Program-made: the position numbers and the translations under genes | Notes under the pieces: model-generated | Database searches by the model: none | Told to the model about the DNA's origin: nothing | What the model saw: only the letters and a program-made list of their open reading frames with translations | Shown: in pieces, positions 410 through 15,005 of the stretch | Position numbering within the stretch: the stretch's first letter is position 1 | Layout of the letters: each line of letters starts with the position of its first letter | From: a virus | Lineage: Duplodnaviria; Caudoviricetes | Virus record (IMG/VR): IMGVR_UViG_3300043681_000002 | Span: 1 to 24,712 of that record | Direction: 5' to 3' (one strand) | DNA length: 24,712 bases

Positions 410-870
410 GGAAAGTTTAGCAGTGCAAATTCCCCATGGCATTCTCTTGCTGCTGCATCATAAGCACGTGCAGCTTCCTCTGCTGTATCGAATAAGCCAA
501 GGTTCTTCCTTACCTTGTCTACACTTATACGTGCTTGCCATCTACCACGCATGTCAGTAACACCACGATAGCCAGAACCATACTCGGTCTGTGGTTTGAA
601 TGCATGGATATTATTCTGGGAATATGTTGCTAGTCGTAGATTACTGCGCACATTGTACAGACCATCACCATTCGCATGGTCTATCTTCATCTCCGGTGGT
701 GCCTGTAAAATCACACGATGCATTACAAGATTTGGCTGCTTCCATCGTCCGCTGTGCGCATACCAAACATCGTGTATCTTGTGTGCATACCATGAATAAG
801 GAGCAACTAGGTGGTAGTCCTCATCATCAATGGTTGCAAACTTGTCCTGTGTTAATGGTATCCTTATCAT
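406..870 (-). CDS. HNH homing endonuclease with C-terminal AP2 DNA-binding domain
   Basis: MHRVIL...[20 protein letters not shown] (HNH_3) then GYRGV...WQARI...[18 protein letters not shown]...HGEFALLNF (AP2). ATG at 870 overlaps the polymerase stop (ATGA); the track start is 894. Confidence 0.93.
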
Positions 871-3368
871 TTTATTTTCCTGATCGTGGACCAACGATGA
901 ACACCTTGTTCATCAGGGACGGACACTCCCATTTCTGCTGGCACGATCAGTTCCGTGGGGGCGTCAATCCCACGGAGTCTATTCTGAACTGAATTGATAT
1001 ACAATGGCTGCTCAGCATACTTGCGCATGATCGCGCGCACCGCTGGTCCGTCCTCATGGCGATTGATGGCTATGTTGGCATCGTGCACATTGATTAAGAT
1101 ACGCGCGGATGGAGGCCACTCAGGGTCTTGGTGACATTTGTAGATTACGCCTGACGTATGATCTCCATTCAGGCTTTGTGGTTCGAATGCTACGATCGAC
1201 TCTAGAGCGGCATCGTCCCATCGCTCCATAAGGAGCCATCGTCGTCCTGCGGCAGTTGTAATAGCACGGTCCCTGCGCACGAGTTCAACCAGGTCATCCC
1301 ACCACAGTTGGATTTGTGGGGTTGCCATGTGGTATAGCCGATACGCTTGTTCAGCTTCGACAGGTGCGAGGCCAGTGACGGTGGCGAGTTTGTCTGCTGC
1401 CATGCGGTAGTTAAGCCCGTGCCTGCATCGCTTTGCGATAAAGCGAATGGTAGGTAGACCTCCTCCGTCTCGGTCGTTGTGCGGAACTTGCTCATAGGGC
1501 ACCTTGAACATCTCTGCGGCTAACGCACAATGCGCATCATATGTTCCAGGATGCAAGCGTGCATTCTCGAATTGCTCCAACCACTTAGGTATGTGTGCCA
1601 GTGCAGCCACAATCCGTGCTTCTATTTGCGACATGTCATAGTAGCTGAACTCCCAACCAGTGGGTGCGACAAACATGTTCTTGGCTTGTTCTGGAATGTT
1701 CTGCATGTTCAGCCCGGTTTGCCATGGCGTCTGGCTACTAGACAACCGACCGGGTGCCGACGCTACTCCTGTTTGCTTGTAGGTGCAGCGCCATCTACCG
1801 TCGTCGTCGGCGGTTGCGTTGATGTAGGTAGAGACGAATTTGGATTGGGATAGGTAGTCATCAATGGCTTCGATAAGGCTGCGAGCGTCTGGCCTTGTTC
1901 TTGGATGTTTCTTAATACGATCTCGATTTTCTTTATCTGTACTTGTTCCTCGTCCGACCAAGCCAAGGTCATTAAAGAAGAGCTTAGCAAGCTGTTGATG
2001 ACTTCGTGGATTAAACTCATAGCTGCCATCGCCAAGTGCCTCACGTGCCTTGCTTTGGCATAGTTCATTTGCTTCAACGAGTCCTCGCTCAAGTCGTTCG
2101 CTGAGTTCGGATTTGAGTCGCTCATCTACTTGCACTCCATTGATTGTCATCTCTACGAGTTCAGGTTGCAGACGCATCACATGATTGTGGAACCGATCAT
2201 GTTGTCCACTAGCCAACAACTCCTGCTCCATCTTCTCAGCAGCTATTCGTGTGATACAACAGTCCTTGACATTGTATTCCCAGAATGCATCTATGTCTCC
2301 TTCCTCCTTCCATAATTTGCCTTCGTCCTTGTAATGCGGGTGGTCTGTATACTGAGCCGTGATGAAGCCAAGGTCGTGCGGTAAGCCGGGATATAGAAAA
2401 TGGTGTGCGAGCATCGTGTCGAACCAATGCGGGTTGACACGGATACGATCCTTGAACCATAACCACGTGGCATCATAATGGCCGTTCTGTGCCACAAGCT
2501 GCGTTCTTGGGTTAGCCAAAAGCGATTGTACTTCAAGTCTGATGTCACGTTCTTGTTGCACAGAGTAGTGATTCTCCCCTTGGCTACGAAAGTTAATACA
2601 AATCCCGATACTATTGGTAGGCGCGAAGCCAATACATGCTGTCTCACCAGCCATCGTCTCGATGTCGTAGGCAATCGGTTGATCAAGTGACGATGCATAT
2701 CGTATGAAATCGAACGTCTCACTAACGGTTGGATTGATAAGACATTCGATATGCGGAACACTAAACACTCCATCGCGTAGACGTTGCAGCTTACCCAGGT
2801 CCATGCGGAACACGACTTCCATCCGTGGTTCGCGCATAACATGTGCAGGATTGAACGTGCACAACACCTGGATGACCCGGCCACCTATAACCAAAGGGAA
2901 GACACTCCCCCGTTTGTCGGTTATACCAGTGATGCCGACCAAAGCCTCCAGCGCGTAGTTCCCTAGTGCAACTACGAACTTCAAGTTTGGGAGACGACTC
3001 AGTTCCTCCTGTAGTATGTGTTGCCATATCACCCTCTCGGTTTTGGGAATGGTTTGCTTCTCTTTCTTAGGTGCCAACTCATGGGCACCAGCACTACTCA
3101 CTAGCTTCCGCTTGATCACGTTAGTAATGAATACATCATTCCTGCCTAGCTTGTTCTTGCGTAGAATGTTCCACAAGTAGTGACCTGATCCACCGATCAG
3201 CGGCATACGCTGCTGCACCTCACGATCACCGGGTGCTTCAGCAACAATGGCAATCTCGCTATTAAGATTACCACCACAGCCACAGTCAAACTCGAAGCCC
3301 GCACCATTGACCAAAGCCCTGAGTTCGCTGTTGGCCTCGGCAATGTTCTTGAAAGGTTCTATCATCAT
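867..3368 (-). CDS. polA: Family A DNA polymerase with N-terminal family-4 uracil-DNA-glycosylase-like domain and 3'-5' exonuclease
   Basis: UDG-like AEAPG/FITNVIK/TFNPAH; ExoI YDIET, ExoII QNGHYD, ExoIII YNVKD; GRLSS, NMQNIP, motif A DMSQIEAR, motif [14 protein letters not shown], motif C NVHD. Confidence 0.95.
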
Positions 3369-3373
3369 GTCGA

Positions 3374-3475
3374 TTACAACCTATGGTTTGTTGACAAGAA
3401 ATGGATTGCATCGATATAATATCTCTTCCTTATCCCGCCTACCTGGGATGTTATGCGTTCACGTTGTGTTCTCAT
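3374..3475 (-). CDS. 33-aa small ORF (putative leader peptide of the polymerase)
   Basis: Hand-translated MRTQRERITSQVGGIRKRYYIDAIHFLSTNHRL*; strong SD (TAAGGAG) 6 nt upstream of ATG; fills the helicase-polymerase gap and stops 5 nt before the pol ATG. Confidence 0.6.
   Translation of the reverse strand: MRTQRERITSQVGGIRKRYYIDAIHFLSTNHRL
3391..3420 (+). promoter_or_regulatory. Antisense sigma70-type promoter
   Basis: TTGACA (3391-3396), 18 nt, TATAAT (3415-3420): both hexamers perfect, opposite to all flanking genes. Confidence 0.7.
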
Positions 3476-3491
3476 GGGGTTCTCCTTATTA

Positions 3492-4802
3492 TTAGCCTAC
3501 GTATTTAGTACTTTTCGACAATGACTGCATGTCGGTAAAGACTGTGCACATCTCCCGTGCCCTAGTCACAGCAGTATAGAAGTTACGACGTGATTGTCCC
3601 CATAGTGTGGCCTTATTAATTACATACGCGACATGCTTATACTCAGAGCCCTGACACTTATGTGTAGTCAGCACATAGGCATGATCGATATTCCTACGTG
3701 GATCACCTTCTATCACACGACCATCTTGGTATACTGTCACCACGATAGGCGGAATGATCACAGTGCGATCACCGAAATCAACCTCAACTGAGCCTTCCTC
3801 ATAGTTGATGTTGATCACCTTACCCACTTCACCATTGAATGCATACGCTTGTCCATCACCACTTAGGTCATAGCTGTTTGCAGTATACACTACCTTACTA
3901 CCCACCTGCACACGGATAGGTGGCTGCTGCACATTACCAATACGATACCGTGGTAGTTCAATGAACGGACGTGCACGATCCCAGAACATAGATTGTAGAA
4001 CAGTGTTCAACTTCTGTGTGCCTATCCAACTCTTGTTCATACACGTGATGATCTGGTGTTCGTTGTCGCTATAGTCGTGACCATCACCAAGTGATACTTC
4101 GACAAACTCCTGTATGGCACGCACGGGATTGTCGGTTTGCTTCAGAGCGAAGTCATTAGCAGCGCGCGGCATCCTACCCTGTAGGATCAGTGCACCATTG
4201 TTCGCAATGCCACTGCCTTCATCCTGTCGGTGATTTGTATTCAACACAATACCACCAAACTTCTCCAATGCAGCCATGAATGCAGACGGTTGATCGTTCA
4301 ACCGCTTGTCTTCTTCAATCGGCTTCAACTGATTCACGTCACCGAATACACACAGCCGAGCACCGCTCTTCAGTGCATTGATCAGTGAGCGGTGGATGTC
4401 CTGGTTCACCATGGCATACTCATCACACAGGATGGTGTCGTATGGTAATGGCTTAGCGCGGTCGAACTTCGGACCAGTGCTGACTTGCACAGTCTTGCGT
4501 TCACCCGTCTTCTCGTCATCCACCTCCAGGTCTACTGGCATACCGAAGCCAAGCATACGGTGGTTGGTCATGGCATCGAGGCCAGTGATCTCGCGGATAC
4601 GCTTAGCGGCTTTGCCTGTGGGAGCACTGGTCTGCACACTGTAGCCCATCTCACTCAATCGATCCGATACCTCACGGATGATCAGTGTCTTACCAGTACC
4701 GGCTCTGCCTGTTACAGCGACGATGCGCTTAGTTACATCACAGCAAACATCGATAGCCTTCTGCTGCATGTCGTCGAACACGACTGCATTGGTTGCGTCC
4801 AT
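3492..4802 (-). CDS. RecD/Dda-like superfamily 1B DNA helicase
   Basis: GRAGTGKT, SAPTGKAA, CDEYAMV, GDVNQL, NHRQ, AYVLTTHKCQGSEY, YTAVTRAR. Start taken at the second ATG (AAGGA SD); the track start is 4811. Confidence 0.93.
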   Translation of the reverse strand: MDATNAVVFDDMQQKAIDVCCDVTKRIVAVTGRAGTGKTLIIREVSDRLSEMGYSVQTSAPTGKAAKRIREITGLDAMTNHRMLGFGMPVDLEVDDEKTGERKTVQVSTGPKFDRAKPLPYDTILCDEYAMVNQDIHRSLINALKSGARLCVFGDVNQLKPIEEDKRLNDQPSAFMAALEKFGGIVLNTNHRQDEGSGIANNGALILQGRMPRAANDFALKQTDNPVRAIQEFVEVSLGDGHDYSDNEHQIITCMNKSWIGTQKLNTVLQSMFWDRARPFIELPRYRIGNVQQPPIRVQVGSKVVYTANSYDLSGDGQAYAFNGEVGKVININYEEGSVEVDFGDRTVIIPPIVVTVYQDGRVIEGDPRRNIDHAYVLTTHKCQGSEYKHVAYVINKATLWGQSRRNFYTAVTRAREMCTVFTDMQSLSKSTKYVG

Positions 4803-4832
4803 CTTGTGCATTCCTTGTATACCAAACCTTGG

Positions 4833-4874
4833 AGAAGAAGGCGCACCGCTACATGATAGCGATGCGCTTATTCT
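4833..4874 (-). terminator. Putative intrinsic terminator/attenuator hairpin
   Basis: Minus strand GCGCATCGCTA-TCATG-TAGCGGTGCGC (one G.U) followed by CTTCTTCT, right after a stop codon; U-tract weak. Confidence 0.5.
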
Positions 4875-5144
4875 TTACTCAGCAGCAGCCTTCATCGGCG
4901 TGCCAGGACGTGACACGGGAACGATGCCACGCAAGTAGAATGCGTGTGGATAGTCCTCATTGTCCATCAGTTCCATGATGGCTTCGGCATTACGCTCCAC
5001 CTTCACAAGACGGATACGTGACTTGTCGAAGTGAGTAGGCTCACCGTTGTCATCCAACACTTGGATGACAAAGAACGCGGGCTTAGCTACGCTCGCACTG
5101 CGCTTGCGCTTACGCTTGGCAGGGGCTTCGGTTGTCTCAGACAT
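4875..5144 (-). CDS. Hypothetical protein (89 aa, basic N-terminus)
   Basis: AGGAG SD before MSETTEAPAKRKRKRS; the longer track start (5237) runs through an intergenic hairpin. Confidence 0.75.
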   Translation of the reverse strand: MSETTEAPAKRKRKRSASVAKPAFFVIQVLDDNGEPTHFDKSRIRLVKVERNAEAIMELMDNEDYPHAFYLRGIVPVSRPGTPMKAAAE

Positions 5145-5655: not shown

Positions 5656-5759
5656 TTGGGCTTGCCCTCCTTGGGCAGATGTACTACATATGAGAGATCA
5701 AACACGCCTCATGCGAGTCATGTTCGGTTGGTTTGTCTTGTTCACACTTGTGCAACTAT

Positions 5760-5792
5760 TAGGCTGCTGTGCAAACGGCAGCCTACTTTTTT
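5760..5792 (+). terminator. Intrinsic terminator in antisense orientation
   Basis: TAGGCTGCTGT-GCAA-ACGGCAGCCTA-CTTTTTT: the 11-bp stem's G.U pair, the GNRA loop and the U6 tract all work only on the plus strand. Confidence 0.65.
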
Positions 5793-6628
5793 ACTCCCTT
5801 GTTAGTGGTTACACGAACAGGTAACGGTAACTTCTTACCGCCTCCTGCCTGCCATGCTCTATACCAGTCGGCTATACCTTCGCCTTCACCAGTATCAGCA
5901 TCGTAATGCCATACGAACTCTGGATGAGTAGACACGAACATGCGTGTCTTCATTGGTGTCCAGAACCTACAAGTTCGCACGGCTATCCTACGCTCAGTGC
6001 CGATGTCTTCGAGATGCCATATCTCGTTGAAGCGCAAACCAACTTGGTTGGCTACGCTATTAGACAACGCCATCTTCACTGAACTAACTACACCATTAGG
6101 CAACTGTGTCTCTGGTCCCTCATGTGTGATGAGGATCAGATGACGTTTGTGTTGTGCACACATACGCATGAGTGCAACCGTGACACGTAGCAATGATTGG
6201 TTGCGAAAGGCCCAACCATTCTGTCCTGGCTGCTCGAACGTGCTGGTTCCTCCTGCTCTTGTAACAGCCTCAGCTAGTGCAACATGTGCCAGCACAGTCA
6301 TACTATCGACAACGACGGTTTCGATATCAGGTCGTGCCTCTAGTATCTTACCCAATCCAAACGGATCAACAGCACGTAGCTGTGCCATGATGATAGCAGG
6401 TGCCGCACCTGTTACATTCAGCGTGCTGATATCATCACGACTAGCTAGTGATAGATCACCACCTGGATCGAACAGGATGAACAGCTTGCGTCCAGGTGCT
6501 GTAGCAGCAAGCGTTGTCTTGCCACTACCACTGTTGCCCCAGATCAACATGTTGAGCTGCATGTCCTGCACAGATGGAGATGAGATAACAAATCCACCTG
6601 CTGCAATCAGTGGCGGCTCTTCATCCAT
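5783..6628 (-). CDS. Sak4-like (AAA_24) recombinase/ATPase
   Basis: MLIWGNSGSGKTTLA Walker A, VVVDSMT Walker B, HLILITHE; context of nuclease and SSB genes. ATG at 6628 with AGGAG SD (track uses TTG at 6634). Confidence 0.85.
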   Translation of the reverse strand: MDEEPPLIAAGGFVISSPSVQDMQLNMLIWGNSGSGKTTLAATAPGRKLFILFDPGGDLSLASRDDISTLNVTGAAPAIIMAQLRAVDPFGLGKILEARPDIETVVVDSMTVLAHVALAEAVTRAGGTSTFEQPGQNGWAFRNQSLLRVTVALMRMCAQHKRHLILITHEGPETQLPNGVVSSVKMALSNSVANQVGLRFNEIWHLEDIGTERRIAVRTCRFWTPMKTRMFVSTHPEFVWHYDADTGEGEGIADWYRAWQAGGGKKLPLPVRVTTNKGVKK

Positions 6629-6831: not shown

Positions 6832-7314
6832 TCAGATGGTGTCGGTTGATACCACCTGTAGATATTCATCACGTGCAGCCACAGCTTCAGCGAGTGTATG
6901 AAACTGTCCAAGATATATCCATCCCTTGTCTCGCCACACCGTGACCTTATACATGCCTGTGTTACGCAGTGTGATATTCCGTTCTCCTGTTTCACCAACC
7001 TGCCATGATCTATTCACCATGGACTGTGACTTATTCACATAGCGTAGATTGTCACGGCTGTTGTTCGTAACACATCTATTGATGTGATCGATCTCATCTC
7101 CTTCCCATATCGGATAACCAATGATCATGTGATGCAAGAACACACGTGGTCGTCGCCGATCAATGTCCACACTGAGTCGCGTATGTGGATAGCCATCATC
7201 GTTGATCGTCCATGTAAATTCTTCCAGCAACCATTGATCCTGTGCATCCACAATGATGTTACGTTCTGCTGCCAGAGCCAGTCTCCTTGCCTTACTGAAT
7301 GGTTCTCCCATCAT
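6832..7314 (-). CDS. HNH homing endonuclease with AP2-like C-terminus
   Basis: LHHMII...IDHINRCVTNNSRDNLRYV...YLGQFHTLAEAVAARD; ATGA overlap with the upstream stop. Confidence 0.9.
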   Translation of the reverse strand: MMGEPFSKARRLALAAERNIIVDAQDQWLLEEFTWTINDDGYPHTRLSVDIDRRRPRVFLHHMIIGYPIWEGDEIDHINRCVTNNSRDNLRYVNKSQSMVNRSWQVGETGERNITLRNTGMYKVTVWRDKGWIYLGQFHTLAEAVAARDEYLQVVSTDTI

Positions 7315-8396
7315 TCATTACCAATGCCATCAAGTATTGGTTTATCTAAGGGGCTCCATTCCTCGTGAGTCATTTCATCTACGATCTTGTGTTGTTCTTC
7401 GTCATCAGCATCGCAGAAGGGGATCATTGGGCATGGACGAAAATATCTATTACAGGAGTGTGTATATTTGGGCGCATCATAAGGGTTAAGCATGTAGCGT
7501 CGAGCAAGTTGAATAGTATGAACTAACCAGGATAACCAACGTGCGTAGTGATAGTCGTGACGGCGCACAACTTCTCTAACATAACCACCATAATCATAAG
7601 TCCTAGGTAAAGGGATAGCCAGACCAAGAATCTCAGCACTGTGCACCGGCTTCTGTATAAATGTTGAGGCAGCTATACAGTATCCTGTAATCTGATGACT
7701 CAATAAGAATGATTGTGCCCATGCATCACCAAGTCTGCTTGCGGTTTTATTATCGTGACAACACAACTCATTGTTCGTGTTGTAATGGATGCCATCGATC
7801 CGACCCGTTAAGCGGAAGACAGTATCACCGCTGATGTCTACCACAAGATCGAACGGTATCTCGATGCCGACATCCGAACATGGATCATTCACATCACGCA
7901 TCCATACAGGATGATCCCATCTCCACCTGTTCACGTATGCATAGATGCATTCCTCCAAGTTGCTTAACGTCCTGCGTTTGTCGCGTGGATCATCGAAGAA
8001 CCCACTCGTCTCCAACACTGCGAGTGCACCGACCTTAGCCACCTCAACATGATCACTACATGCATCGACTGACGTGTTGATATAATCCATACGCTCAGCA
8101 CCAAACAGTCGGTTGCCGTTGTAATCCCATAACTTATCCTGGAACTCAGGCCGACCCACATACTGTTGCATCAGCGATACCATGCGGATGAACGAGAAGC
8201 ATTCATGCATTGCACTGCCAGCCTCCAGTGCCATGGCTCTGCCCTCGGATGGCATAGACTTGTGCATCTGATACTTGAGTATGCCATACGTTGGACATGT
8301 GTTGATTGCGCTCAACTTGGTGTGATCATATGTCTCCAGTAGATAGTCGTCAGCAGTAGCGAGACGAAAGTTAGCGCGTAGGTTTTCCACGTCCAT
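7311..8396 (-). CDS. PD-(D/E)XK Cas4/AddB-like exonuclease, probable Fe-S cluster
   Basis: N-terminal TCP and GSAMHE, IEIPF, GRIDG, HDNKT, QITGY, C-terminal CNRYFRPCPMIPFC (1+3 Cys arrangement). Confidence 0.88.
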   Translation of the reverse strand: MDVENLRANFRLATADDYLLETYDHTKLSAINTCPTYGILKYQMHKSMPSEGRAMALEAGSAMHECFSFIRMVSLMQQYVGRPEFQDKLWDYNGNRLFGAERMDYINTSVDACSDHVEVAKVGALAVLETSGFFDDPRDKRRTLSNLEECIYAYVNRWRWDHPVWMRDVNDPCSDVGIEIPFDLVVDISGDTVFRLTGRIDGIHYNTNNELCCHDNKTASRLGDAWAQSFLLSHQITGYCIAASTFIQKPVHSAEILGLAIPLPRTYDYGGYVREVVRRHDYHYARWLSWLVHTIQLARRYMLNPYDAPKYTHSCNRYFRPCPMIPFCDADDEEQHKIVDEMTHEEWSPLDKPILDGIGNE

Positions 8397-9330
8397 GTCC
8401 CTTCCCAGGTTTAGTCGGCGGCACTGGTGGTGGCGGCGTTGTTATGAATGAGATCGGTAACAGATCAAGGACAGGTCGTAGTGCAAGCACGTCACCGCCT
8501 AGTGGATTGGCTAGGTTCCACACGCTATTACCAATGAAGTTGGTAGGACCAACACTGGTTGGATTGAGTATGCCATAGCCACCAGGATTGTCGTTGACTA
8601 TGGTGTTACCACTGAGCGTGACGTTGTTCGATGCATAAGCCAAGCCTTCTTCACCATACGCAATGATTGCTGGGTTCTGTGTATTAGATCCTTGCTGGAT
8701 CACGTTGTTGCGGATGCTGGCATTGCCACCATTGGGTAAGTCGATAGAGTAGCTGGCACTCCCGTTGTTATCGAAGATGCGGTTGTTCGTGATCGTGTTG
8801 TTCGCAGCACGTGACTTGATCTCATGTCCAACAGCGGTATCGTGTATGTAGCTGTTGGTTATCGTGAAGCTAGCAAGTTGGTTGACGTAGACACCATGCG
8901 TGTGTCCGCTACCATCACCGTTGAATGCAATCTCCAGGTGATCCATGAGGATGTTACCGTTCGGATCGTTCGCACCAAGGACACCTTCCTGATTGTTATA
9001 GAACCAGTCGTCTCGTAGTGTTAGATCACCACCCTCATAGCGTATAGCTGCACCGTTGTTATCAGGCACAGTCACGCCACTGATAGCAAAGCCAGCAATG
9101 GTAACGGCAATGCCTGGAACACCAACGGTAATGGCTGCCTTGCCATTAGGTGGCGACACGCTTGCATCGATACGTGCCAGACCACCTGATGCACTCAGTG
9201 TCATGGACTTGGTGATAGACAAGAACTGATTGGTGTATGTGCCAGCAGCAACCGATACCGTATCGCCTACACCTGCGATGTCGATTGCTGATTGTATGTT
9301 ATCCCCAACTCCGACACTGATAACAGTCAT
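8371..9330 (-). CDS. Right-handed parallel beta-helix (pectin-lyase-like fold) protein
   Basis: IQSAIDIAGVGDTVSVAAGTY N-cap, Asn-ladder repeats (TITNSYIHD, TITNNRIFD, SIRNNVIQ, TLSGNTIVN), GHEIKSRA motif. Confidence 0.88.
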   Translation of the reverse strand: MTVISVGVGDNIQSAIDIAGVGDTVSVAAGTYTNQFLSITKSMTLSASGGLARIDASVSPPNGKAAITVGVPGIAVTIAGFAISGVTVPDNNGAAIRYEGGDLTLRDDWFYNNQEGVLGANDPNGNILMDHLEIAFNGDGSGHTHGVYVNQLASFTITNSYIHDTAVGHEIKSRAANNTITNNRIFDNNGSASYSIDLPNGGNASIRNNVIQQGSNTQNPAIIAYGEEGLAYASNNVTLSGNTIVNDNPGGYGILNPTSVGPTNFIGNSVWNLANPLGGDVLALRPVLDLLPISFITTPPPPVPPTKPGKGHGRGKPTR

Positions 9331-12737: not shown

Positions 12738-13205
12738 TCATGGCTCTACGCCGTCTCCTACCGTCTTATGGATGCGTCCGATGGCAATCGCTGAGACCGC
12801 TGTTCGGCTGATGCCGTATAGCTTAGCGATATCTTCCTGTGTCCTCCCTTCAGCGAGCAATGCACGAATTGCACGCACCACGTTCTTAGGCATACCGTGT
12901 CGTTCACGTTCTATAGCATCGTTGGTATTCTCCTCGCGTGTGCCGACACGTAGATGTTTGGGATTGCCGCAACCAGTTGGATAACCTCCACGATCACAAC
13001 TGTGTAGGATTTGTTGATTAGGATTAAGCAACTCACCCGTAACGAGTTCATAGACCCAACGATATGCCATCGTGCGTCGTTTACCAGCAGTGAATGTTGG
13101 TCGCTGTTCACGTGCACGACCTGTCCAGCCACCTAGCCACTGCCAGCATTCATCGCCTGCCTTCATGTCATACAGACGAAACACGTCCTTGGGATCGTTA
13201 GACAT
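12738..13205 (-). CDS. HNH (His-Cys type) endonuclease with C-terminal HTH
   Basis: ECWQWLG, AYRWVY, ILHSCD...CGNPKHLRVGTREEN, then TQEDIAKLYGISRTAVSAI HTH. Start MSNDPK with GGAG SD (track start 13226). Confidence 0.9.
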   Translation of the reverse strand: MSNDPKDVFRLYDMKAGDECWQWLGGWTGRAREQRPTFTAGKRRTMAYRWVYELVTGELLNPNQQILHSCDRGGYPTGCGNPKHLRVGTREENTNDAIERERHGMPKNVVRAIRALLAEGRTQEDIAKLYGISRTAVSAIAIGRIHKTVGDGVEP

Positions 13206-13219
13206 GTCATACTCCAGAC

Positions 13220-13257
13220 ATGCCAATGCACCCTGCTGTTACACAGGGTGCTGGCAT
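13220..13257. other. Intergenic hairpin
   Basis: ATGCCA-(AT)-GCACCCTG-CTGTTACA-CAGGGTGC-TGGCAT: 14 bp with one bulge, no U-tract. Confidence 0.55.
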
Positions 13258-14105: not shown

Positions 14106-14370
14106 ATCGGATTGTGTTATCAGTAGGACGAGTTAAGATAATCTCATCTCCCTCGTCAGCGCGTACTGTTATGCGTTCTATCATACCACTGTTGTGACAC
14201 TCCAAGTATGTCCCGTATACGAAGTCGTTAGTAGAAATCCATAACCTCCATCCATGCTCCATACGCACGATGCGTTGTAATCTAGTGCCAACCGGGACAC
14301 CGACAAGACATTGTTCTAGTGTGAGCATTGGATATGGTAGTGTTGCAAAGCCAGCAATCAGCTTACTCAT
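14059..14370 (-). CDS. Hypothetical protein (103 aa)
   Basis: GAAGGA SD before MSKLIAG (the track start 14424 lies inside the HNH gene). Confidence 0.7.
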   Translation of the reverse strand: MSKLIAGFATLPYPMLTLEQCLVGVPVGTRLQRIVRMEHGWRLWISTNDFVYGTYLECHNSGMIERITVRADEGDEIILTRPTDNTIRYGWSTHSDKDKSRNS

Positions 14371-14815
14371 TTTGATCCTTCCATTTCTGTAACACAACAT
14401 CACGTGCCCGTTGTGCATCTTCAAGAAGCACGAATACCCTAGACCAGTTCTCTTGTCCCCTCCTTATGTAGACACAATACTTTCCAGTTGGTGTAAGCAC
14501 GATGTTCAGCATCGGATTGTCTACTCCCTTATGGTTTAAGCGGTTCTGTTGTAGTGATGCATATCGTAGATTACTGCGTCGATTGTTCAACTTGTTGCGG
14601 TCTATATGATCGACTACTACTTCTGCATCCCAAGGTATGCCTACAATAAAATGATGTATTGCTAGATTTCTACGATCACCAATTGTAGTAACAACATATC
14701 CCTTAGTTGATAATGCCCAAGTAAATGTAGACAATAGCCATTCGTCTTCTACATCTACAAGAATACCAAGTTCAGTTGCTCTTACTAATCGTTGATCCAC
14801 TGTCAATTTTGTCAT
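14363..14815 (-). CDS. HNH homing endonuclease with AP2-like C-terminus
   Basis: IHHFIV...VDHIDRNKLNNRRSNLRYA...LEDAQRARD; clear paralog of 6832-7314; visibly AT-richer than its flanks. Confidence 0.9.
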   Translation of the reverse strand: MTKLTVDQRLVRATELGILVDVEDEWLLSTFTWALSTKGYVVTTIGDRRNLAIHHFIVGIPWDAEVVVDHIDRNKLNNRRSNLRYASLQQNRLNHKGVDNPMLNIVLTPTGKYCVYIRRGQENWSRVFVLLEDAQRARDVVLQKWKDQNE

Positions 14816-15005
14816 TGAACGCTCTTTCAAGTGGCGCACCGATTGCAATCAACCCAATACAAGGGAACTCGTTGTCTAACGCATGAATGGATAGCTTCTC
14901 AACGATAGCCTGTATTGCTTCCTCCTTAGTGTCGAACACACGTGGTGATCTACCACGCACACCATTGAAGAATGTAGTGAATGACCACCTAGTTGTTGTC
15001 TGCAT
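14772..15005 (-). CDS. Hypothetical protein
   Basis: GGAGG SD; FDTKEEAI motif common in small phage proteins; 3' end overlaps the HNH gene. Confidence 0.65.
   Translation of the reverse strand: MQTTTRWSFTTFFNGVRGRSPRVFDTKEEAIQAIVEKLSIHALDNEFPCIGLIAIGAPLERAFNDKIDSGSTISKSN

Follow-up and report, generated by a model that had tools for sequence, protein, structure and literature searches.

The junction and its described counterparts

In plasmid R1, a short upstream reading frame (tap) ends at the start of the replication gene repA and a counter-promoter lies over this leader (PMC12361487; PMC5415839); its RNA, CopA, is described as blocking tap translation and hence RepA (PMC12361487). In Bacillus subtilis, the antisense promoter of ArrA lies just upstream of the replication genes dnaA-dnaN, with an approximately twofold damping of mRNA and protein in the published account (PMC12112137), and among phages, P22 sar and lambda OOP are counter-transcripts over a neighbouring gene's mRNA (PMC5415839). 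The locus considered here resembles each of these in part, and its polymerase resembles the UDG-fused family A phage polymerases, which carry UDG, exonuclease and PolA domains in a single chain (PMC13697223). We found no case of antisense or leader control of a phage family A polymerase in the openly licensed literature and bioRxiv; if true, such a switch would be a compact regulatory circuit born in 123 bases.

The window, meaning the whole 24,712-nt stretch that was analysed, is a 24.7-kb part of a phage detected in soil metagenomes, whose relatives have genomes of about 45 kb. On its minus strand, a Sak4-like gene, an SSB-like gene (a label based on its position and appearance), a 120-aa gene, a helicase gene and a DNA polymerase gene (pol) follow one another, and in the relative G001 a primase gene comes after pol. 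The best named phage records share only about 27% identity with the polymerase. The helicase gene, which ends at 3492 upstream of the spacer, was absent from the original prediction. The features at the junction are:

867-3368, minus strand: pol, a fusion of UDG, 3'-5' exonuclease and family A DNA polymerase, 833 aa (Pfam UDG, DNA_pol_A_exo1, DNA_pol_A); its start reads ATGATG, with the ATG at 3368
3492-4811, minus strand: RecD/Dda-like SF1 helicase, 439 aa, the upstream neighbour of pol
3369-3491: helicase-pol spacer, 123 nt, 41% GC, known only from near-identical copies of the window phage
3374-3475, minus strand: 33-codon open reading frame without a homologue and with codon usage like that of off-frame windows; stop at 3376-3374, 5 nt ahead of the pol ATG
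3482-3488, minus strand: strong, accessible Shine-Dalgarno (SD) sequence of the short frame, TAAGGAG (duplex -9.3 kcal/mol, opening cost 3.5)
3379-3384, minus strand: weak SD of pol (duplex -4.9 kcal/mol, comparable to -4.0 in relatives with a 5-nt gap)
3358-3423, minus strand: imperfect hairpin, by prediction, in which leader codons pair with the pol SD and the two ATGs; its stability does not exceed that of shuffles (z -1.1 to -1.3)
3391-3420, plus strand: 12/12 match to the sigma-70 consensus with an 18-nt spacer, antisense to the operon (TTGACA 3391-3396, TATAAT 3415-3420)
2401-4000: mosaic tract with the spacer at its centre, where identity to G002 and L078 is 62-84%, compared with mostly 91-100% in the flanks

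It had been proposed that pol translation is coupled to the short frame as a leader and repressed by a cis-antisense RNA from the backward promoter, after the model of CopA and sar. The parts themselves were as described: all coordinates of the 33-aa frame (3475-3374, minus strand), its strong SD and its stop 5 nt before the weak-SD pol ATG were confirmed, as was the perfect TTGACA-N18-TATAAT at 3391-3420 on the opposite strand within it. Two CopA-type features are thus found here, a leader stop where pol begins and a counter-promoter consensus directed towards the ribosome binding region of the leader.

Turnover and origin of the spacer

Phage replication operons hold variable slots for accessory and HNH insertions and use stop-start translational coupling. 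We recovered 50 distinct helicase-pol junctions with gaps of 5-1401 nt, and in a 36-row tree built from the initial 870 nt of pol (distant junctions excluded) the window phage is nested in an 11-member clade with support 100/100. Six slot states occur within this clade: empty (four members), a 99-aa Zn-ribbon gene (two), an HNH-AP2 endonuclease gene (two), unrelated frames of 69 aa and 63 aa in one member each, and the 33-aa frame of the window, which is the shortest occupant seen and the sole one with a perfect backward promoter match. A further slot gene of about 190 aa was present in 19 junctions, all outside the clade. Turnover can be seen between very similar polymerases: an empty junction (L004) and one holding 293 nt (L007) show at most 1 difference per 30-nt bin across the initial 600 nt of pol.

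Whatever occupies the slot, the end of the upstream frame lies between -5 and +11 nt from the pol ATG in 11/11 clade members, that is, in the window and 10/10 close relatives. Four of those ten relatives have an empty slot, and in them the helicase stop itself lies at the same -5 before pol, next to a weak pol SD (-4.0 kcal/mol). Across all 50 junctions, 24 upstream ends fall within -10 to +4 of the pol ATG, though distant pol starts are unreliable. Because all clade members have such close ends and the empty-slot helicase stops at -5, close coupling and a weak pol SD are family defaults and do not single out a special leader; that pol is coupled to the short frame stays plausible, but as a generic arrangement.

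The spacer is not an assembly error: in contigs from 8/8 runs examined, no other letter appears where they cover it (X1 is possibly the source itself, and X12 and X16 cover the spacer partially). Its region was present in 20 runs from 17 studies, with at least half its words in 18 runs, and one run additionally contains a relative lacking 118 nt at this place. The copy L077 differs from the window by 1 mismatch in 4963 nt and by none in the spacer, too little variation for power. No homologue of the spacer DNA was found among phages or plasmids, two further 18-mer matches were rejected as chance, and Rfam gave no match. Of 50 loci where RTGATGATHG is preceded by a perfect backward promoter, only an identical copy belongs to the phage family, and a search with the window-type helicase end plus SD returned a single match, again the identical copy.

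The encoded peptide was as private as its DNA. It was found in 0/27 related genomes (a search run without a positive control), had no homologue at near or longer lengths in a 5.8-billion set (a word-limited search, weak for so short a query) or in phage records, PHROGs or Pfam, and reached a best Atlas score of 0.77, below the usable level. The sole phmmer match, P0001, was rejected as a tandem repeat adding up weak matches, with no significant stretch. Conservation of the leader was therefore not borne out, neither spacer DNA nor peptide being found beyond near-identical copies.

Since the tract at 2401-4000 is mosaic, a lineage without a sampled intermediate probably brought the spacer in or gave rise to it. 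The nearest relatives are about 20-35% apart across this tract, all carriers are near-identical and intermediates are absent from the sample, so recent selection on the spacer may still have acted. We looked for a parent sequence. Derivation as a degenerate copy of the helicase 3' end, suggested by an MQSIS/MQSLS look-alike, was rejected: in tests of 20 helicase ends p was 0.03-0.82, with 2/20 below 0.05 uncorrected and at differing spacer positions. Remnants of the ancestral slot gene of about 190 aa (19 sequences) or of HNH-AP2 (10 sequences) were likewise rejected by six-frame profile searches with negative bit scores, a DNA profile search of the spacer for either remnant gave no match, and neither a donor nor a gene from which a stub could derive was identified.

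The short frame, the backward site and the predicted transcript

The start of the short frame is well equipped for initiation, its opening cost of 3.5 being the lowest among 18 window starts tested. When the spacer was shuffled, a frame from the fixed ATG ended within -10 to +4 of the pol ATG in 12% of cases, and given this chance of reaching pol together with the strong, open start, the frame is probably translated. Its codon score of -0.023 falls in the 2nd percentile among gene windows (in-sample) and coincides with the median of off-frame windows, and eight of nine other small genes are gene-like with scores of at least 0.136; such non-adapted codons are equally compatible with a leader peptide and with a stub. 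The hairpin predicted over the pol start (-15.5 kcal/mol, z -1.33, p 0.10) disappears in a model with a terminating ribosome, and at 10.4 the cost of opening the pol start falls in the middle of the range of 5.9-15.7 for 32 junctions.

The backward site is rare for a single window, as 0.010-0.015 perfect sites with spacers of 16-18 are expected per window on both strands and 4.5e-5 of base shuffles of the spacer contain one. In a survey of 347 kb, comprising eight relatives and the window, a 12/12 site is expected 0.03 times per strand. Opposite-strand sites of at least 11/12 are expected 1.1-1.2 times per strand and one was seen, the candidate itself; the other 18 of 19 sites in the survey face the pol strand. 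Those 18 show that the family uses host-type promoters, and they share a style: 17 have a spacer of 17, 17 have Y-A after the -35 box, all 18 have a purine at +6 to +8 and 12 have TG. The candidate departs from the family in all five features (orientation, spacer of 17, Y-A, purine start and TG), and the sole feature in common is a G two bases before the -10 box. The missing purine 6-8 nt downstream of the -10 box had gone unmentioned in the original prediction. A looser promoter pattern across 27 records gave 25/29 matches on the replication strand, the remaining 4 lying in one distant genome, far from the helicase. Promoters with 18-bp spacers are nearly as strong as those with 17 in E. coli, according to one report (PMC8695583), so the site may well fire.

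Conservation of the hexamers was contradicted by relatives. Scanning 300 nt on each side of every junction at a threshold of 10/12, we found an antisense site in 0/39 relatives at 55% helicase identity or more, and in 3/10 more distant ones at unrelated positions. Conserved hairpin controls were retained down to about 45% identity; because selected controls remain visible at 45-100% identity, the absence of the candidate from relatives is informative, but it is no proof against recent selection. The features downstream of the predicted start, near 3427, are:

3431-3450, plus strand: small hairpin at the predicted 5' end of the RNA (-7.4 kcal/mol, z -1.61)
3453-3524, plus strand: 23-codon open reading frame with a hydrophobic middle, overlapping the helicase end; no Pfam family (only Pfam tried)
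4838-4880: hairpin preceding the helicase gene, with a U-tail on each strand; the first strong plus-strand terminator after 3427
5759-5795, plus strand: antisense-oriented terminator between the Sak4-like and SSB-like genes, family-wide

The small hairpin foreseen at the RNA start does fold at 3431-3450, but it is ordinary, 16/200 shuffles being as stable, and over its first 75 and 150 nt the predicted RNA is no more stably folded than shuffled sequences (z -0.27 and 0.07). Within 300 nt we detected no clean plus-strand terminator, the best being a loose fold of -10.7, and a moderate candidate lies near 4080-4140. With no close terminator and an end at 4838-4880, the transcript would probably be about 1.4 kb; such an RNA would be antisense to the first half of the leader and to the whole helicase, and would leave the pol start uncovered. 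The hairpin before the helicase has a sense U-tail in 21/37 relatives and an antisense one in 14/37 at the same loose cut-off, and the terminator preceding the SSB-like gene has the antisense orientation in 38/45 relatives, compared with the sense orientation in 4/45.

Competing readings and comparison with known systems

We regard it as probable, on balance, that the spacer is a lineage-private occupant of a fast-changing slot, with a generic hand-on of ribosomes to pol and a backward promoter that is likely an unselected passenger. The spacer may have arrived together with the mosaic tract, or it may be the stub of a larger insert; ribosomes terminating at 3374 would open the modest hairpin over the pol start and then restart. 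If the plus-strand site fires, the RNA running over the helicase to 4838-4880 would have at most a mild, tolerated damping effect on helicase-pol-primase expression, and the bulk of bacterial antisense RNA has been argued to be noise (PMC4783119). Several findings pull against this reading: a 12/12 site is rare by chance and its 18-bp spacer is of a kind functional in E. coli, the pol start is covered by a predicted hairpin, and no source gene for a stub turned up. The strong, open SD with a frame reaching pol, at a 12% chance, also suggests that the short frame is real. Possible, but in our judgement unlikely, is a real and recently selected private brake that fires early and lowers helicase-pol-primase expression through transcriptional interference and a long antisense RNA, in the manner of ArrA and not of CopA; it would offset the stronger pol translation given by the new SD. 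The rarity of the perfect match, its position inside the single private stretch and a consensus evidently read by the host polymerase argue for such a brake, as do the similarly placed ArrA with its twofold damping (PMC12112137) and the defined antisense RNAs reported in lytic phages (PMC10914365). The plus-strand terminators at 4838-4880 and 5759-5795 would confine its transcript, but the latter is family-wide (38/45) and is therefore not there for this site. The site is, moreover, missing in 39/39 closer relatives and lacks both the family promoter features and a purine start.

A dedicated switch like CopA/tap/repA, in which the leader opens a masked pol start and a small cis-antisense RNA blocks the leader SD, draws on the fitting order and spacing of the parts, on a leader SD that is strong and open beside a weak pol SD, and, as its best argument, on the hairpin at 3358-3423, in which leader codons are paired to the pol SD and ATGs and which is lost with a modelled terminating ribosome. 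We consider it very unlikely, however: neither promoter nor leader is conserved, the masking hairpin is unexceptional (z -1.1 to -1.3, average opening cost), the predicted RNA has neither structure beyond shuffles nor a close terminator, and empty-slot relatives have a weak SD and a -5 spacing by default. Nor was there any sign of a plasmid-like or temperate life needing copy control among 31 G001 proteins, 16 of them unassigned: integrase or repressor families had 0 matches in these 31 scanned of 40 listed reading frames (16/31 without a family), and no prophage relative was found in the genome contigs set using helicase patterns. It is also improbable that a newly evolved antisense switch on the phage DNA polymerase has formed here, with a captured 123-nt spacer serving as pol-unmasking leader and as host-type counter-promoter whose RNA would shut off the leader, timing replication and confined to one clonal soil lineage. 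The site might instead be the promoter of a tiny plus-strand gene at 3453-3524 (23 aa), a backward insertion resembling a moron or a type I toxin; its ATG lies 26 nt past the predicted start and an SD-like GGGA sits within the small hairpin, but this frame runs into the helicase end, the leader's purine-rich SD, read on the complementary strand, gives its hydrophobic codons, and a weak SD with no Pfam family and no terminator leaves this reading highly unlikely. A role of the site in priming or activating a replication origin next to pol is barely credible: the site is placed in the replication module and the spacer is slightly AT-rich (41% GC), but in G001 pol is followed by a primase gene, the relatives replicate with no such spacer and no GC-skew switch occurs at the spacer region.

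Compared with known systems, this locus lacks the small, terminated RNA of the CopA/sar type. CopA is a small, structured, terminated RNA with strong stem-loops and is conserved across IncFII replicons, whereas the window spacer is not conserved and its site would be without a terminator for about 1.4 kb and without a significant fold. The targets differ as well, a phage polymerase here and the rate-limiting initiator in plasmid R1. P22 sar and lambda OOP are small RNAs (OOP is 77 nt) of temperate decision circuits, whereas the window RNA would be long and no such circuit was seen in the window phage. The anatomy of the predicted RNA, that of interference or a long antisense transcript, is closer to ArrA than to CopA. 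Nevertheless, ArrA has been demonstrated in vivo and is partly conserved, and overlaps a 5' UTR as described (PMC12112137), whereas the window site overlaps a leader frame inside an operon. If the slot-occupant reading is correct, the main lesson is that perfect promoter boxes and leader-like reading frames require a conservation test. The closest likeness of the spacer as a private slot occupant is to the insertion slots of phage replication operons, with unrelated small genes and HNH-AP2 endonucleases swapped at the junction and each ending at the pol start; if this reading is true, the spacer is an ordinary case, another occupant of a phage insertion slot.

Promoters, hairpins and an intergenic element

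Three features bear on transcription along the early (minus) strand and the helicase–polymerase operon that it carries:
11088, 15810 and 17497, minus strand: family early promoters
5656–5795: element shared across the family, separating the Sak4-like gene from the SSB-like gene
4838–4880: hairpin with a U-tail, 5′ of the helicase gene

The promoters, all on the early strand, are characterized by TTGACA, Y-A and a 17-nt spacer, with TGTGC often preceding the −10 box. The hairpin at 4838–4880 was terminator-like in the sense direction, that of the operon, in 21 of 37 relatives, and it likely steps expression down from SSB to the helicase and polymerase. The intergenic element comprises, in order, an A-tract, a sequence-variable hairpin, an AGTT..ACATGCAA-like motif, a second hairpin and ATATAGT/ATGTAGT. 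In 38 of 45 relatives it looked like a terminator acting on antisense transcripts, against 4 of 45 in which it looked like one acting on sense transcripts. Late read-through may be what this antisense-oriented terminator stops; a promoter or an origin are other conceivable roles.

The TATAAT −10 box of the antisense promoter match between helicase and polymerase is flanked by the 5-bp arms of a short, interrupted palindrome centred on it (3413–3423); the operator-like look of this palindrome is probably due to chance.

HNH genes, a NosD-like gene and the polymerase

Other genes in the window include:
406–894, 6832–7314, 12738–13226 and 14363–14848: HNH endonuclease genes
8371–9330: beta-helix (NosD-like) gene

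The four HNH genes, three called by family scans and one by inspection, lie within 15 kb. The NosD-like gene, which had no counterpart in the related genome G001 by blastn comparison, is an accessory insert.

The UDG–PolA fusion (867–3368) falls in a large, uncultured clade from soil, and named phages reach at most ~27% identity to it. In a related contig (L038), otherwise near-identical, ~80 nt are missing inside this gene near window positions 2883–2960, shifting the frame, which reflects either an assembly error or a defective variant.

A mosaic tract at the helicase–polymerase junction

The gap between helicase and polymerase is a slot of variable content, which in most distant relatives holds a gene lost from the window's clade:
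2498–3004 of L024, a related contig, and 18 other junctions: ~190-aa gene in the helicase–polymerase gap

This gene encodes a CPxWLRxNPLS-like motif and a basic tail, and a Pfam search returned no family. HNH-AP2 genes occupy the slot in seven junctions. Positions 2401–4000, spanning the N-terminal third of the polymerase and the C-terminal part of the helicase, form a mosaic tract with 62–84% identity to relatives whose flanks mostly match the window at 91–100%. Centred on a slot known to hold HNH-AP2 genes, the tract resembles a co-conversion tract.
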